Sequence record: OQ411014.1
Direction: 5' to 3' (one strand)
Source of the DNA: Escherichia phage EJP2
DNA: 64,000 nucleotides
Of the stretch, positions 682 through 63,701 are shown piece after piece. Under the pieces are notes generated by a model. The model was not told where the DNA came from, did no database searches, and saw only the letters and a list, made by a program, of their open reading frames with translations. Within the stretch, counting starts at the first letter, position 1. Each line of letters starts with the position of its first letter. The position numbers were made by a program, and so were the translations under genes.

Positions 682-754
682 GCTTGAATAGCTCAGTAGG
701 TAGAGCAGCGTACTTGTAATACGAAGGTCGTGGGTTCAATTCCTGCTTCAAGCA
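682..754 (+). tRNA. tRNA-Thr (anticodon UGU)
   Basis: Acceptor GCTTGAA/TTCAAGC, D-arm GCTC-AGTAGGTA-GAGC, anticodon loop CTTGTAA, T-loop GGTTCAATTCC; CCA not encoded. Confidence 0.75.
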
Positions 755-855: not shown

Positions 856-1362
856 ATGCAAATGACTTACGAAGATACAATGACTCATCTCAGTACTATT
901 GATATTGAAAAGTTCACTCTAGAAGTCACTACTGGCGACCGCAACAAGAAGATGTGGTACAGTGAATATGAAAATCAAGATGACCTGTATGTTGTGGTTT
1001 CTGATAACAGTTCTTGGGGATTGGTATCAATCACAGTATTCACACCAAATGCTGACAGGACAGTTTTGCATCGCTTCAACCGTTCTATCCATCCTAAGCA
1101 CGAACTGGACGTGATGAAGATTGAATCAATTATGTTCGACTTTGGTGGAAATCGAGATGATAAAGCGGACATTCCAGCAGTGTGCATTCAAAACCTAAGT
1201 ACACTGAAGTCCGAGTCTGATTTCTTCAGTTATATCCTAATGAACAACATCAATGATATCACACATCAGAATATCGTTGACTTCATTGAATTCACTGATA
1301 AACTGTACAGTAAATGGGTAGAACAGTTCGGTGAACCATCTCTAGGAGACGAAGATGAGTGA
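856..1362 (+). CDS. hypothetical protein (168 aa)
   Basis: ORF track 793..1362 trimmed to first ATG with AAAAGG RBS; track start overlaps terminator hairpin; C-terminal ESDFFSYIL resembles FFQ-family motif. Confidence 0.5.
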   Translation: MQMTYEDTMTHLSTIDIEKFTLEVTTGDRNKKMWYSEYENQDDLYVVVSDNSSWGLVSITVFTPNADRTVLHRFNRSIHPKHELDVMKIESIMFDFGGNRDDKADIPAVCIQNLSTLKSESDFFSYILMNNINDITHQNIVDFIEFTDKLYSKWVEQFGEPSLGDEDE

Positions 1363-1753
1363 AATTCAATCCAGATGTTATATAGTACTGAACAAAGAAC
1401 TCCAGATGCCTGTCGGTAAAGCTGCTGTACAGGTTGGTCATGCGATGGATCAGGTTTGGGGAGCTTTCTGTAATATGACTTCACAACCTACCATGTCTTT
1501 GTTGGGTAACCTGAAGTACATGGAAGACTTTTCCAAATGGAAAGATGAAGGCCGTAAGAAAGTAACACTAGGTGCTAAGAACGACGCTGAAGTTCAGAAA
1601 TATAAAGACAAACTCCTTGATGCGGGTTATACTGTGTTTGATATCGTTGACTACGGAATCAATTTCTTTGATGGTGTAACCAGGACTGGTATTGTAGTCT
1701 TTCCAGTACTGAATGCTATCCCTGAACTAAAACGTTTACAGGTATTCAAATGA
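1355..1753 (+). CDS. PTH2-like peptidyl-tRNA hydrolase domain protein (132 aa)
   Basis: Motif YIVLNKELQMPVGKAAVQVGHA resembles PTH2 core (hydrophobic strand, GK, AAQ..HA); ATGA start/stop overlap with upstream gene. Confidence 0.45.
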   Translation: MSEIQSRCYIVLNKELQMPVGKAAVQVGHAMDQVWGAFCNMTSQPTMSLLGNLKYMEDFSKWKDEGRKKVTLGAKNDAEVQKYKDKLLDAGYTVFDIVDYGINFFDGVTRTGIVVFPVLNAIPELKRLQVFK

Positions 1754-2172
1754 AAGAATTCAACCGTGCAGAAGCTATAGCAGAGGCTTATGAGAAAATA
1801 AAAAACAATGAACTACGTCTAAAGGATGTATCTCAATCGAATAAGCATCGTGAAACTGACGAATACGTATTGTATTTCAACCCATATGCTGGTATGTTCA
1901 TCTTACGAATGAACTTGGAATGTATCCTAGATACAAACCAGAATCGGACGTTATTATTTTATTCGACCGATGAACCAGATGAAGCATTAGTACCAGTACA
2001 GAACGGTATTGGTAGTATAATTGTACACCCTTATAAATCTGAAGCTGAACAGTTCCAGCGTACTTTGGTCGAAGAAGATTATCCTGACGTTGAAACTATG
2101 AAACAGATTCAATATATTGTTGAGTATATCAAAAGTACACATTTCGGAGGCGTTGATGCAGTACAAGAATAG
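1750..2172 (+). CDS. hypothetical protein (140 aa)
   Basis: ORF track; ATGA overlap coupling; C-terminal SEAEQFQRTL motif. Confidence 0.55.
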   Translation: MKEFNRAEAIAEAYEKIKNNELRLKDVSQSNKHRETDEYVLYFNPYAGMFILRMNLECILDTNQNRTLLFYSTDEPDEALVPVQNGIGSIIVHPYKSEAEQFQRTLVEEDYPDVETMKQIQYIVEYIKSTHFGGVDAVQE

Positions 2173-4760: not shown

Positions 4761-5618
4761 ATGCAACCAATAACAGTACTTAGTCTGTTCAATGGAATGT
4801 CAGGCGGGATGCTTGCTTTAAACGAAGCACAAATACCCGTACATAAGTACTATTCATCTGAGATAGATAAGTTCGCAAACGCTGAGTCCCAAGCGAATTT
4901 CCCTGATATAGTCCAGTTGGGTGATGTTACCAAGTGGAAGGAATGGGATATTGAATGGGACAAAATAGATCTACTCATGGGTGGATTTCCATGCCAGGCA
5001 TGGTCTGTGGCTGGTAAACAGGGTGGAACGAACGATCCACGTGGAATGCTATTCCATACTATGGTTGATATCTATCATCATATTAAGGCGTTGAATCCGA
5101 ACTTGAAAGTACTGTTCGAGAACGTCAAGATGAAAGAAGACTTCAAGCAATACATTGATGGTATCTTAGGAATGACACCTAAGATGATCAACTCTCAAAA
5201 CTACACTGCTCACTATCGCCAGCGATATTACTGGTACTCATCTGATAAGTACTTTATCCCGCCTCCTATCATGTCTTCCCCTTCACTGCAATCAATTCTT
5301 GATAGTGATTACACTGATAGAGAGAAATCGTACTGTATAGATGCGAACTATTGGAAGGGTGGAGATCCTAACCAGTACTTCAACAAGTCCAGGCGGCAGA
5401 TGGTGTTCATGGACCCTGATATTGATAGAGAGTACCTTATTGAAAAGGGTATAAACAAGATTGACTATCGTAAGCTAAGTGTAGTAGAATGTTGTCGTTG
5501 TCAGGGAGTGCCGGATGATTACTTTAAAGTGTCCAGCAATACCCAAGCGTACAAGATGTTAGGTAACGGGTGGACTATCCCAGTCATCGCTCACTTATTA
5601 CGTGATATATTCTTTTGA
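4761..5618 (+). CDS. DNA (cytosine-5)-methyltransferase
   Basis: C5-MTase motifs in order: I LFNGMSGG, IV GFPCQAWS, VI ENV, C-terminal GNGWTIPV; RBS AAAGGA. Confidence 0.8.
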   Translation: MQPITVLSLFNGMSGGMLALNEAQIPVHKYYSSEIDKFANAESQANFPDIVQLGDVTKWKEWDIEWDKIDLLMGGFPCQAWSVAGKQGGTNDPRGMLFHTMVDIYHHIKALNPNLKVLFENVKMKEDFKQYIDGILGMTPKMINSQNYTAHYRQRYYWYSSDKYFIPPPIMSSPSLQSILDSDYTDREKSYCIDANYWKGGDPNQYFNKSRRQMVFMDPDIDREYLIEKGINKIDYRKLSVVECCRCQGVPDDYFKVSSNTQAYKMLGNGWTIPVIAHLLRDIFF

Positions 5619-5648
5619 TATAATACTATGACTTACAAAGGAGAGCAT

Positions 5649-6218
5649 ATGAACTTTATCAAGTTCAATACATCTGAGTCAGAAGCATACTTTGATACAA
5701 ATAATAAATTCAATATTATTCTAAAAGACGGAACAGTTATTATCGGAGTATCATTACTATCATTTGATGGTGAAAACCGCAAAACTGTTTATAAATTCAC
5801 CAATCTTGATGGTGATTACTGGGATACATCAGATGTATCTAAAATTTGCACACATTATGTATTTGAATCAATTGAAGTTGGTGATGGATGGGCGTTGACT
5901 TGTAATGGTAATAAAGTATTTTCTGGTAACATATTTGGGGTAATCACCGAAAAGGAAATAGTAGACCATCATCTTCATGTCCTCAATGATACTGCTAACA
6001 CTTATACACCTGATAATATCAACCTTCGCGATATTGTAACATATACTGATTGTAATGGTTTCAGTCATAAAGCAATCGTAACTGAAGTCAAAAAACCAAG
6101 AAATTATTTCGACCACGGTGTAATTGAAGTATATATGGTAGATGTTGATAAACAATACTTTGAACATTTCACTTATACTGGTTGGGATAAATTCCTAACC
6201 GTTATTGAAGAATATTAG
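5649..6218 (+). CDS. hypothetical protein (189 aa)
   Basis: ORF track 5628..6218 trimmed to ATG with AAGGAG RBS. Confidence 0.55.
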   Translation: MNFIKFNTSESEAYFDTNNKFNIILKDGTVIIGVSLLSFDGENRKTVYKFTNLDGDYWDTSDVSKICTHYVFESIEVGDGWALTCNGNKVFSGNIFGVITEKEIVDHHLHVLNDTANTYTPDNINLRDIVTYTDCNGFSHKAIVTEVKKPRNYFDHGVIEVYMVDVDKQYFEHFTYTGWDKFLTVIEEY

Positions 6219-11101: not shown

Positions 11102-11191
11102 AGAAGGTTGGCAGAGCGGCTAAATGCACTCGCCTACTAAGCGAGCACTCGCTCCGGCGAGTCGAGGGTTCGAATCCCCCACCTTCTGCCA
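11102..11191 (+). tRNA. type II tRNA with unusual anticodon loop (apparent anticodon ACU; identity uncertain)
   Basis: Acceptor AGAAGGT/ACCTTCT, T-loop GGTTCGAATCC, long variable arm, encoded CCA; anticodon stem CTCGC/GCGAG with loop CTACTAA. Confidence 0.6.
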
Positions 11192-33758: not shown

Positions 33759-34751
33759 ATGACTGTAAAACAACTCAATCTAGAATCTATTCAAGACGAT
33801 ATCATGGATGAATGTTTTGTAAATGAAAACAATACGTTCGAGCGTATTAGTGAACAGTCACATGACAGTACTGAAGAAGTAGAAGAAAGTACTGATGACG
33901 TAGGTTCTTTCAAGACTTACAACACATCTAGCGTTTTACCAGAAGGTGAGACGAATGAATCTATTATTCGTTTAATCCGTGACGGTATCAATGTGAAGCG
34001 TAACATTGACCTTATCGTACGTAACAACGTAGGCTTAGTATATAGCCAAGCACGTCAGTGTACTTGTAATATCCCATTCCAAGATAAAGCACAGTACGCT
34101 TTTGAAGGTCTAATGCGTGCAATCCATCGTTATGATGTGAATCAGAATATTCTTTTCAGTACTTACGCTACTGTGTCTATTCGCCAAACACTCTATAACT
34201 TTGGTAATGATGAAGTTCGTCTAATCAGTATTCCACGTCACTTGTCAGTGGATAACATCAAGATTCAGAACTACATTGAGAAGCATCGTTCTAAGTTCGG
34301 TCGTACCCCAAGTGAAGATGAAATCAGTACTGCTACTGGCATCAAGTTATCCGCAGTGAAACGTGTAGTGCAGTACATGAACAGTAAGCCAATGAGTTTC
34401 GATACTCCAATGGGTTCTGACAGTACTGAAAACGATATGAGCTTAGTGGATGTAATCCCAGGAACTTCCAATGATTACACACTAAGTGCAGATACAGTTC
34501 AGAAAGCACCACTAGATGTAATTGCATTGGTCATGTCTGAACTACCAGAAGAAGAGCAGTTGCTGATCAATAAGATTCACGGCTTGAATGGACATGAAGA
34601 AAGTACTTTTATTGCTCTAGAGACTGCTGGATTGGTAGATGCGAAGGGTAAGAAGCTAACTAACCGTTGCACTATTCATCGTCGTTACAATGCAATACTG
34701 GATAAGATTCGTAATATTCTAAAAGCACGTGACATTTCATTCGATGACTGA
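33759..34751 (+). CDS. RNA polymerase sigma factor, sigma70 family
   Basis: Region 2 match VGLVYSQARQ..FEGLMRAIHRYD..FSTYATVSIRQT and C-terminal region-4-like helix-turn-helix; AAGGAG RBS. Confidence 0.7.
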   Translation: MTVKQLNLESIQDDIMDECFVNENNTFERISEQSHDSTEEVEESTDDVGSFKTYNTSSVLPEGETNESIIRLIRDGINVKRNIDLIVRNNVGLVYSQARQCTCNIPFQDKAQYAFEGLMRAIHRYDVNQNILFSTYATVSIRQTLYNFGNDEVRLISIPRHLSVDNIKIQNYIEKHRSKFGRTPSEDEISTATGIKLSAVKRVVQYMNSKPMSFDTPMGSDSTENDMSLVDVIPGTSNDYTLSADTVQKAPLDVIALVMSELPEEEQLLINKIHGLNGHEESTFIALETAGLVDAKGKKLTNRCTIHRRYNAILDKIRNILKARDISFDD

Positions 34752-48860: not shown

Positions 48861-50039
48861 TTATGGTAAATCAAATTCCGTATATGAATATTTGTATACA
48901 CCATCTGGTCCACGACCTGAGTATCGTAATTTACCAGAAGTAGTTATATATGCTGAAGTAATATTACTAGTACTGAATATGTTAAACACTGACTTCATAT
49001 CATTCACTGTACCGTTACCGAATGGTATCAGGTTAAGTTCATTGCCGTTGACACCAGTACTCAATCTTCCTGAAGAATTTGCTCCACAACCATATGCATT
49101 TGATGGGCTAAGAGCAACGTAACCAGTATTACTAGTATAATAACTTAGTAAACCAATAAAATTCTCTGTAGTGGCTATTTCAGTAAAGACTCTAATATTG
49201 ACAGAACTATTCACTCCATTACCTAAGTTTCCAGCATTCTGGCTTCCCGCAGCATATAGATGTGTTTTACCAGTACCGTCACTGTACAATATTGTGAATG
49301 CTGATTCAGTTAGACCAATATCAAAAACACTAAGACCTGGGTCTGGTAGTGGTACTTGTGTTAGCACATTTATTCTTGTATCTGGATGACCAATACCGAG
49401 TTGACCAAATGAGTTTGAACCTGAAACCCAAACACTTAAATCATTTTTTAATATCAGTACTGATGAATTAACAAATTCAACTTTTTGAACATCTGATGTA
49501 AGTTTTGAGAAAGTAGTTAGTGCAAGATAATTACCAGTTGCTAGTTGGCCTTGGTTATTAAAACCGCTTCTATAAAGATCACCATTGTTCATTAATATAT
49601 ATAATGCATATACACCAGCATGAACAGATGTTATTTGATTAAGATTCCCTGTACCTATACCAGCTTCAATAAATGGGGTACAATCAGTATATGATGTCAC
49701 AACTTCAGTAGATGATGTATTGCCAGTTTGAAAGCTACGGCGACCAGTATATAATAATTTTCCATCCATAGTTTTAATGATAACAAAACTTGTGTTTGTA
49801 CACCAAACATCTTGAACATCATCTCTGATTAAAGTCCACTCTAGCTTTTGTTCTGTTGGCTTTCCATCCCCATAGATATAATTATCAACTGTTCCTCCAC
49901 CGATACCATACAATCTGTTATCATCATATAATACCATAAATGCCGGACGAGACGATGCATAAGGTACTAATATTTTTGTAATTTCAGGTAATGAAGGTGC
50001 TTTATTACCATAATTAAGCATTCGTACAAAAGGTAACAT
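48861..50039 (-). CDS. RCC1-like repeat (beta-propeller) protein (392 aa)
   Basis: ORF track; GGAGA RBS on minus strand; repeated G-x-N-x-x-G-Q/N-L-G motifs (GFNNQGQLATG, GSNSFGQLGIG, GSQNAGNLGNG). Confidence 0.65.
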   Translation of the reverse strand: MLPFVRMLNYGNKAPSLPEITKILVPYASSRPAFMVLYDDNRLYGIGGGTVDNYIYGDGKPTEQKLEWTLIRDDVQDVWCTNTSFVIIKTMDGKLLYTGRRSFQTGNTSSTEVVTSYTDCTPFIEAGIGTGNLNQITSVHAGVYALYILMNNGDLYRSGFNNQGQLATGNYLALTTFSKLTSDVQKVEFVNSSVLILKNDLSVWVSGSNSFGQLGIGHPDTRINVLTQVPLPDPGLSVFDIGLTESAFTILYSDGTGKTHLYAAGSQNAGNLGNGVNSSVNIRVFTEIATTENFIGLLSYYTSNTGYVALSPSNAYGCGANSSGRLSTGVNGNELNLIPFGNGTVNDMKSVFNIFSTSNITSAYITTSGKLRYSGRGPDGVYKYSYTEFDLP

Positions 50040-62570: not shown

Positions 62571-63701
62571 TTAAAATGGTAAATCTATTTGTTTGGTAAT
62601 CGTCATACCTAAAGGTATTGAACACATTGACATATTTTTCCCATTTAGATTGGAAGGCGGCTGTCCGTTCATCCATATATTGGTATCGTCATAGAATGTA
62701 CTCCACCACGTAGAACCACCTTCTATGTGAATATTTTGATTAAAATCAGCGAATTGGCATTCTTGAAAAACTTCAAAAAACGGAATAGATGATAAACTAC
62801 TACTAGTAAATGGTGTATATCCTGTTGCCATTAACTTATTCGTATCTGAATTTACTAAAAAGATAACATTACCTGCATTGTATGGTACATATTTGGGATA
62901 TAAATTACTCATATCACCAATAGGGAAGTTAATATTAAATATTTTACTATGCGTACCCGTTCCTGAAAGTGTAGTACCAGTTACGTATATTTTATTATCA
63001 GTTGTACCCATAATAAACCCAATACCAAACCCAGAACAAAATGTAATGTCGTATGAAACATTATCAAATAGTTGAACAAACGTAGTTACATCACCTGCTG
63101 GACTTTGTATTTGTAAACTATTGTTTGCACCTGCTCCCCAAACAGTTCCGTTACTTTTCACTTTGAATAAAGTATCTCCTATATAGTGACCATATATGCT
63201 ATCAACTTCAGTATCAAGTTCTGTCCATTGTGACACAAAGTTTTTATGCCCTAAACCTAAACACCCATTACGATTAAGCCCTCTACCGTACAATGTACCA
63301 TCATTCATCAATACAAATACTGTATATCCACATAACATTTTTTTAATTTGTGTAACGTCGATACCATTAAAATACCCACTCCAATCTGCATAACCTTGTT
63401 GCATTGTCGAAGAATTTGTAAATGCTTGTGTTGGCCCTGAACCATATATTTTACCACCTTTAATAATGACTGAAAACGATCCCAACCACACATCTTGAAC
63501 ATCCTGAGCAATTGTTTTCAATTCACCATATGCAGTTAAGGGAGTACTTTGCCCTGAACTATATGTTGAATCTTCTCCGTGTGCATATAATGTTCCATCT
63601 TGTGTTAGAATCATTTCTAAGTAAACAGCACTTACACTTTTCTTTATTTTATTAACTTCTATTTTATTTCCGTACTTCAACATCCTTGCAAAAGGTAACA
63701 T
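62571..63701 (-). CDS. RCC1-like repeat (beta-propeller) protein (376 aa), paralog of 48861..50039
   Basis: ORF track; shared N-terminus MLPFARMLKYGNK vs MLPFVRMLNYGNK; motif GLNRNGCLGLG; GGAGA RBS on minus strand. Confidence 0.65.
   Translation of the reverse strand: MLPFARMLKYGNKIEVNKIKKSVSAVYLEMILTQDGTLYAHGEDSTYSSGQSTPLTAYGELKTIAQDVQDVWLGSFSVIIKGGKIYGSGPTQAFTNSSTMQQGYADWSGYFNGIDVTQIKKMLCGYTVFVLMNDGTLYGRGLNRNGCLGLGHKNFVSQWTELDTEVDSIYGHYIGDTLFKVKSNGTVWGAGANNSLQIQSPAGDVTTFVQLFDNVSYDITFCSGFGIGFIMGTTDNKIYVTGTTLSGTGTHSKIFNINFPIGDMSNLYPKYVPYNAGNVIFLVNSDTNKLMATGYTPFTSSSLSSIPFFEVFQECQFADFNQNIHIEGGSTWWSTFYDDTNIWMNGQPPSNLNGKNMSMCSIPLGMTITKQIDLPF

Follow-up and report, generated by a model that had tools for sequence, protein, structure and literature searches.

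The window analyzed here, a stretch of 64,000 nucleotides from Escherichia phage EJP2 (OQ411014.1), raises near its start the question of whether this phage carries a peptidyl-tRNA hydrolase of its own, and of what use such an enzyme would be during infection. The original prediction had placed a PTH2-like domain at positions 1355-1753, beside tRNA genes, and had proposed that the product could recycle stalled peptidyl-tRNA or reverse the modification of aminoacyl-tRNAs by toxins, which would make it an anti-defence function. The features of the locus are the following:

856..1362, plus strand: upstream ORFan, given as context from the ORF list (168 aa in a near-identical contig; no Pfam match)
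1344..1348, plus strand: Shine-Dalgarno-like AGGAG, 6 nt 5' of the ATG, read from the sequence
1355..1753, plus strand: PTH2-family CDS, an ATG-to-TGA ORF of 132 aa, stop codon counted in the coordinates
1750..2172, plus strand: downstream ORFan, given as context from the ORF list (no Pfam, PHROG or PADLOC match)

The position proposed for the domain is exactly that of an ORF, and the segment YIVLNKELQMPVGKAAVQVGHA corresponds to residues 9-30 of its 132-aa product. There is an 8-nt overlap between the end of the upstream ORF (stop codon TGA, 1360-1362) and the start of the PTH2-family gene, the stop codon of which in turn overlaps the ATG of the following ORF within the sequence ATGA (1750-1753). 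These overlapping starts and stops indicate that the gene is one member of a tightly packed, co-directional chain of small genes. At the DNA level, the window, which belongs to a RaK2-like jumbo phage, is matched by isolate phages in short patches only, for instance at 5616-6000 with 92% identity to Asteriusvirus phages. The only near-identical copy of the gene was found on a 70.9-kb metagenomic contig (run SRR22213601), which is about 98% identical across the first 4.75 kb of the window; there, the encoded protein is 98% identical to that of the phage, and the neighbourhood is 97.9% identical. The two copies of the gene differ at 10 codons, 8 of them synonymously, and both amino acid changes sit in a variable loop. 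The PTH2-family gene is thus under purifying selection.

Membership of the PTH2 family was examined with profiles and with a predicted structure. The protein matched Pfam PF01981 (PTH2) with 52.5 bits for a gathering threshold of 23 (E = 6.7e-14), residues 8-118 aligning on positions 3-100 of the 115 positions of the profile, the last 15 of which found no match in the phage protein. PHROG 1866, a group annotated as of unknown function, was matched over residues 4-130 (E = 9.3e-22). By contrast, scores for the NCBIfam Pth2 equivalogs NF003314 and TIGR00283 were far below the cut-offs (42.0 vs. 126 bits and 33.7 vs. 82 bits, respectively), which points to a divergent subfamily and not to an archaeal-type equivalog. 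An alignment of 27 close homologues was then used as a profile against the PDB, where it retrieved seven distinct solved Pth2 sequences (E between 6e-10 and 1e-5) and nothing else. The same alignment was compared by hhalign with five solved Pth2 sequences, giving a probability of 98.3% and an E-value of 1.3e-14. The AlphaFold2 model of the 132-aa protein (pLDDT 89.4, pTM 0.83), weak only in a loop at about residues 40-55, shows the Pth2 alpha/beta fold, i.e., a four-stranded mixed sheet with flanking helices. When this model was searched against the PDB with Foldseek, all 14 matches at E <= 0.001 were Pth2 chains, the best being that of Sulfolobus solfataricus (1xty; TM 0.78/0.85, rmsd 2.3 A). 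Pfam, PHROG, hhalign and the predicted fold therefore all agree with the domain first proposed, in the profile comparison as well as in the structural one, and these sequence and model data confirm that ORF 1355..1753 genuinely encodes a small protein of the PTH2-type peptidyl-tRNA hydrolase family.

A chance ORF with a spurious resemblance to PTH2, to which we attach practically no probability, was also considered. It is ruled out by the profile E-values (1e-14 to 1e-22), by the predicted fold, which is that of Pth2, by the existence of 26 close homologues with 44-98% identity, and by the ribosome-binding site, the coupled start and stop codons and the synonymous-biased substitutions; no point in its favour was found.

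The kinship with archaeal and eukaryotic Pth2 is nevertheless a distant one. As compared with the enzymes of S. solfataricus (1XTY), P. horikoshii (1WN2), M. jannaschii (2ZV3) and human (PTRH2/Bit1, 1Q7S), the phage protein shares the fold (TM up to 0.85 for the predicted model), together with the G-K...A-Q-V-x-H helix, the W...G-x-x-K strand, the D-x-G loop and the T-x-T...P strand, and it keeps the equivalents of Lys18, His25 and Asp86. However, the identity is only about 20-27%, the phage protein has Asn at the position of Thr90, Phe at the next one and Arg at that of Gln54, an extra loop of 10-20 residues lies between helices 1 and 2 (about residues 40-55), and the canonical I-T-G-x-L-K-L-L C-terminus is replaced. 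The sequence matches also included PDB entry 24bt, a solved 127-aa Pth2-type peptidyl-tRNA hydrolase with the canonical D-A-G-L-T-Q motif.

The most telling of these differences concerns the active site. Lys18, Asp86 and Thr90 of S. solfataricus Pth2 were reportedly found essential for activity by Fromant and colleagues in 2005, who are also said to have described a Lys18-Asp86 salt bridge and to have put forward Thr90 as the candidate nucleophile. The S. solfataricus sequence that we used for numbering is identical to chain 1xty_A, which shows that this numbering is right. HMMER, MAFFT and hhalign agreed in aligning K22 with Lys18, H29 with His25, D99 with Asp86, G101 with Gly88 and N103 with Thr90. 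On the DNA, the residues concerned are encoded as follows:

1418..1420, plus strand: codon of K22, equivalent to Lys18 of S. solfataricus Pth2 in the three alignments (Lys in 173 of 173 relatives)
1439..1441, plus strand: codon of H29, equivalent to His25 (His in 173 of 173 relatives)
1649..1651, plus strand: codon of D99, equivalent to Asp86 in the three alignments (Asp in 173 of 173 relatives)
1661..1666, plus strand: codons of N103-F104, in place of the canonical Thr90-Glu/Gln (all 29 members of the clade have Asn-Phe)

The 173 relatives, aligned on one common profile, comprise the 26 close homologues and 147 of the 150 representatives listed from a profile search run exhaustively against 1.84 billion proteins, which gave 2052 representatives at E <= 0.001. 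At the position of Thr90, 139 of them have Thr, 32 Asn, one Ser and one Val. In a neighbour-joining tree, the phage protein forms a clade of 29 with the RaK2-like and GAP32-like representatives, and every member of this clade has Asn-Phe, vs. Thr followed by Glu, Gln or Val in the rest of the family among the relatives listed. Outside the clade, Thr was found in 140 of 146 sequences, the S. solfataricus reference being counted, and Asn in four scattered ones; Thr also occupies this position in the five solved Pth2 enzymes that were aligned (5/5). In the phage protein, the D-A-G-x-T motif thus has N103 at the place of its Thr, and the alignments make N103-F104 a signature of the RaK2-like clade. 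As for the catalytic residues expected of a PTH2 enzyme, the Lys, the Asp and an invariant His are kept, while the equivalent of Thr90 is an invariant Asn in the clade. Two very long proteins of the representative search, P0030 (2694 aa) and P0135 (1713 aa), contain 14 and 8 separate stretches, respectively, that match the profile of the phage Pth2, most of them covering profile positions from about 43 to 119. These may be artefacts of repetitive or low-complexity sequence, or repeated Pth2-like half-domains.

Such a replacement could mark a shift in function, the PTH2 fold being kept with a changed chemistry or substrate, for example another acyl-tRNA or ester, or for ligand binding only, such as the sequestering of tRNA 3' ends. 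The constancy of N103-F104 in all 29 members of the clade, when 140 of the 146 relatives outside it have Thr, would fit a change of this kind, as would the low equivalog scores and the low-confidence extra loop combined with a different C-terminus. We nevertheless regard it as unlikely. K22, H29, D99, T111 and P117 are strictly conserved among the aligned relatives, unlike in typical pseudoenzymes, and, as the Asn itself is also strictly kept, this conservation suggests a constrained, working active site and not a decayed one. Moreover, Asn is a usual catalytic helper among ester hydrolases, and it is found at the same position in four unrelated members of the family. Bacterial Pth1 itself uses Asn10 and Asn114 catalytically (PMC4929431). 

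The reading that we prefer, and hold to be fairly probable, is that of a phage-lineage PTH2 peptidyl-tRNA hydrolase, a soluble esterase that would recycle tRNA during infection; the activity, the substrate and the benefit that we infer are as follows. The bond cleaved would be the ester that links the 3' end of the tRNA to a peptide or to an N-blocked amino acid. Its substrate would be tRNA lost from the ribosome with a peptide or an N-acyl-amino acid still attached, and the cleavage would return free tRNA to the pool. Since Asn invariably takes the place of the canonical Thr, catalysis, provided that it has been kept, would use a water molecule activated by the Lys/Asp(/His) site, N103 bringing a hydrogen-bonding residue instead of a hydroxyl. 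In this way, the phage enzyme may supplement the single Pth1 of the host at a time when a genome of about 350 kb is being heavily translated. This single Pth1 is essential, archaeal Pth2 complements E. coli pth(ts), and the growth of phage lambda is sensitive to the level of host Pth (rap/bar); the last two observations make a benefit to the phage from an extra Pth plausible. The likeness to the host enzyme (E. coli Pth) would be one of catalysis, presumed here to be the release of a peptide or an N-acyl-amino acid from tRNA. In contrast, Pth1 has an unrelated fold and active site (His20, Asn10, Asp93, Asn114; PMC3488237, PMC4929431), and the phage protein has no sequence similarity to it. Against this proposal stand the swap at N103 of the near-universal Thr, the NCBIfam scores far below cut-off, the unmatched end of the Pfam profile, the altered C-terminus, and the lack of the gene in most Asteriusvirus phages of E. 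coli. In the literature searched, we found neither a biochemical assay of any phage Pth2 nor experiments on an anti-defence role of phage Pth2.

The protein is by no means isolated among phages. A tblastn search of 50,697 phage records found it in 35, with at least 95% of the protein covered in each. All of these are RaK2-like jumbo myoviruses of about 340-380 kb, except phiKp_21, an 86-kb record in which the coordinates and the identity of the match are the same as in RaK2-type Klebsiella phages. The carriers include RaK2, K64-1, Muenster, GAP32, CBB, BF, fHe-Yen9-04, Munch, XbC2 and A4; identity is 36-40% in most records and reaches 61% in Erwinia phage Hallingskeid. When a Thr-type distant relative (P0034) was used as query, nearly the same RaK2-like set was recovered, together with one mycobacteriophage. 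A common gene order was observed in RaK2, GAP32, A4 and Hallingskeid, with ORFans, Pth2, an ORFan, a membrane protein, ORFans and a C5 DNA methyltransferase, the latter located at 4761..5618 in the window. Full-length similarity, this gene order and the signatures N-F-F and K-R-L-x-V-[FYW] place the protein in the orthologue group of PHROG 1866, and on these sequence grounds it was shown to be an orthologue of RaK2 ORF188 and GAP32 gp382. With these two proteins and with the Pth2 of K64-1, CBB, BF, Munch, A4 and Hallingskeid (CDS0288), the orthology extends over the full length (36-61% identity) and includes the D-x-G-x-N-F-F motif and the K-R-[LV]-[QR]-[VLC]-[FYW] C-terminus, the difference being that the nearest tRNA gene varies from phage to phage.

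Many of the 35 records already annotate the gene as a peptidyl-tRNA hydrolase, so that the function assigned here is an established annotation in RaK2-like jumbo phages, a point that was missing from the original prediction. The RaK2 genome paper of 2013 singles out ORF188 as a putative Pth2 (PMC3622015), and this Pth2 gene is already covered by a 2021 survey of jumbo phages (Iyer et al., 2021; PMC7824862). From these two papers, the kind of gene is to be regarded as known.

Among the Escherichia Asteriusvirus records, of which about 30 match the neighbouring DNA, tblastn detected the gene in phage A4 only. In phage 121Q, gp85 and gp86, the orthologues of the genes that flank Pth2, abut directly (L006, 5329-6112), and neither tblastn nor the family profile revealed a Pth2 remnant in the 14.6-kb syntenic locus of this phage. 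This precise absence from the 121Q slot indicates that the Pth2 gene is accessory, with a clean presence/absence polymorphism between phages that otherwise keep their synteny, and its absence from most Asteriusvirus phages of E. coli indicates that it is not needed for such a lifestyle.

The original prediction had set the domain beside the tRNA genes. ARAGORN detected six tRNA genes in the 64,000-nt window. The nearest ones to the Pth2 gene, in this phage and in four relatives, are:

682..754, plus strand (this window, ARAGORN): tRNA-Thr(UGU), 600 bp upstream of the PTH2-family gene
GAP32: tRNA-Leu, 0.4 kb downstream
Hallingskeid: tRNA-Ser, 3.7 kb upstream
RaK2: none within 4 kb
A4: none within 4 kb

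The tRNA-Thr gene is preceded by a promoter-like site at 614-643 (TTGAAC, 18 nt, TATAAT, with TG) and followed by a terminator-like hairpin at 804-825; both are consensus matches only, as is a perfect sigma-70 consensus at 2965-2993. Judging from these signals, tRNA-Thr(UGU) is probably a stand-alone transcription unit, separate from the Pth2 cluster. The claim that the Pth2 gene adjoins tRNA genes therefore holds only loosely: tRNA-Thr lies 600 bp upstream, but this tRNA has its own promoter- and terminator-like signals and the linkage is not kept in relatives. A conserved physical link between Pth2 and tRNA genes, considered as a general feature of the lineage, is ruled out by the differing distances in GAP32 and Hallingskeid and by the empty 4-kb surroundings in RaK2 and A4. 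Among the other tRNA genes of the window, a tRNA-Ser at 11102-11191 (plus strand, ARAGORN) has the anticodon ACT, with an A at the wobble position that is unusual for serine, and two further tRNA-Ser genes (TGA, GCT) are present. The same ACT call was obtained for a tRNA-Ser of Hallingskeid (L001, 2211-2301), which makes it probable that this phage tRNA is genuine and conserved.

The genes around Pth2 gave no clue to its function. They are small ORFans in a long series, interspersed with phage tRNA genes. The ten ORFs that flank the PTH2-family gene had no Pfam match, and PADLOC found none among the neighbouring ORFs. Apart from a conserved membrane protein, encoded two genes downstream, the PHROG matches of the neighbours were to families of unknown function only. 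Further away in the window, we noted a protein of 330 aa in which the domains Sigma-70 region 2 and region 3 were recognised (33759-34751, plus strand), likely a phage sigma factor, and two proteins with RCC1-like beta-propeller repeats (48861-50039 and 62571-63701), both encoded on the minus strand, when almost all other genes of the window are on the plus strand.

This context bears on another explanation, in which the main selected role of the enzyme would be counter-defence. It would either deacylate the N-acetyl-aminoacyl-tRNAs made by GNAT toxins of the TacT, AtaT or ItaT type, or remove the nascent peptide from tRNAs that anticodon nucleases have cleaved, the cut tRNAs being thereby freed for repair or for replacement by phage tRNAs. 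Peptide stripping, as a form of ribosome rescue, was proposed by Iyer et al. (2021; PMC7824862), and the acetylation by TacT can be reversed by host Pth (PMC9241777). The accessory nature of the gene, with an empty slot in 121Q and A4 as sole carrier among about 30 Escherichia Asteriusvirus records, would agree with such a role, and so would its location among small ORFans with scattered phage tRNA genes. Nevertheless, we consider it decidedly unlikely as the main role. No experimental or contextual link to a defence system was found, the neighbours being uninformative and without PADLOC match, related phages do not share the tRNA linkage, and the scanned proteins of the 64-kb window included no recognised product of an RNA repair gene. 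Besides, recycling as a housekeeping function rests on the same activity, so that the two are not separable by sequence.

Both alternatives could also be combined. The remodelling of the loop in the RaK2-like clade (Thr to Asn, Glu/Gln to Phe) would then have produced a mechanistically distinct Pth2 tuned to a conflict substrate, for instance toxin-acetylated aminoacyl-tRNA or the peptidyl fragments of nuclease-cleaved tRNA. We hold this to be very improbable; if it were true, the gene would encode a dedicated counter-defence enzyme in place of a housekeeping supplement.

Our preferred reading thus remains that of a putative tRNA-recycling Pth2. The gene adds one fairly divergent member to the phage Pth2 lineage, which has been annotated since 2012-2013 and is discussed as an archaeal/eukaryotic-type translation factor of jumbo phages. 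The clade-wide replacement of Thr by Asn, together with the clean presence or absence of the gene, was not found described in the literature searched, and this combination could merit experiment.
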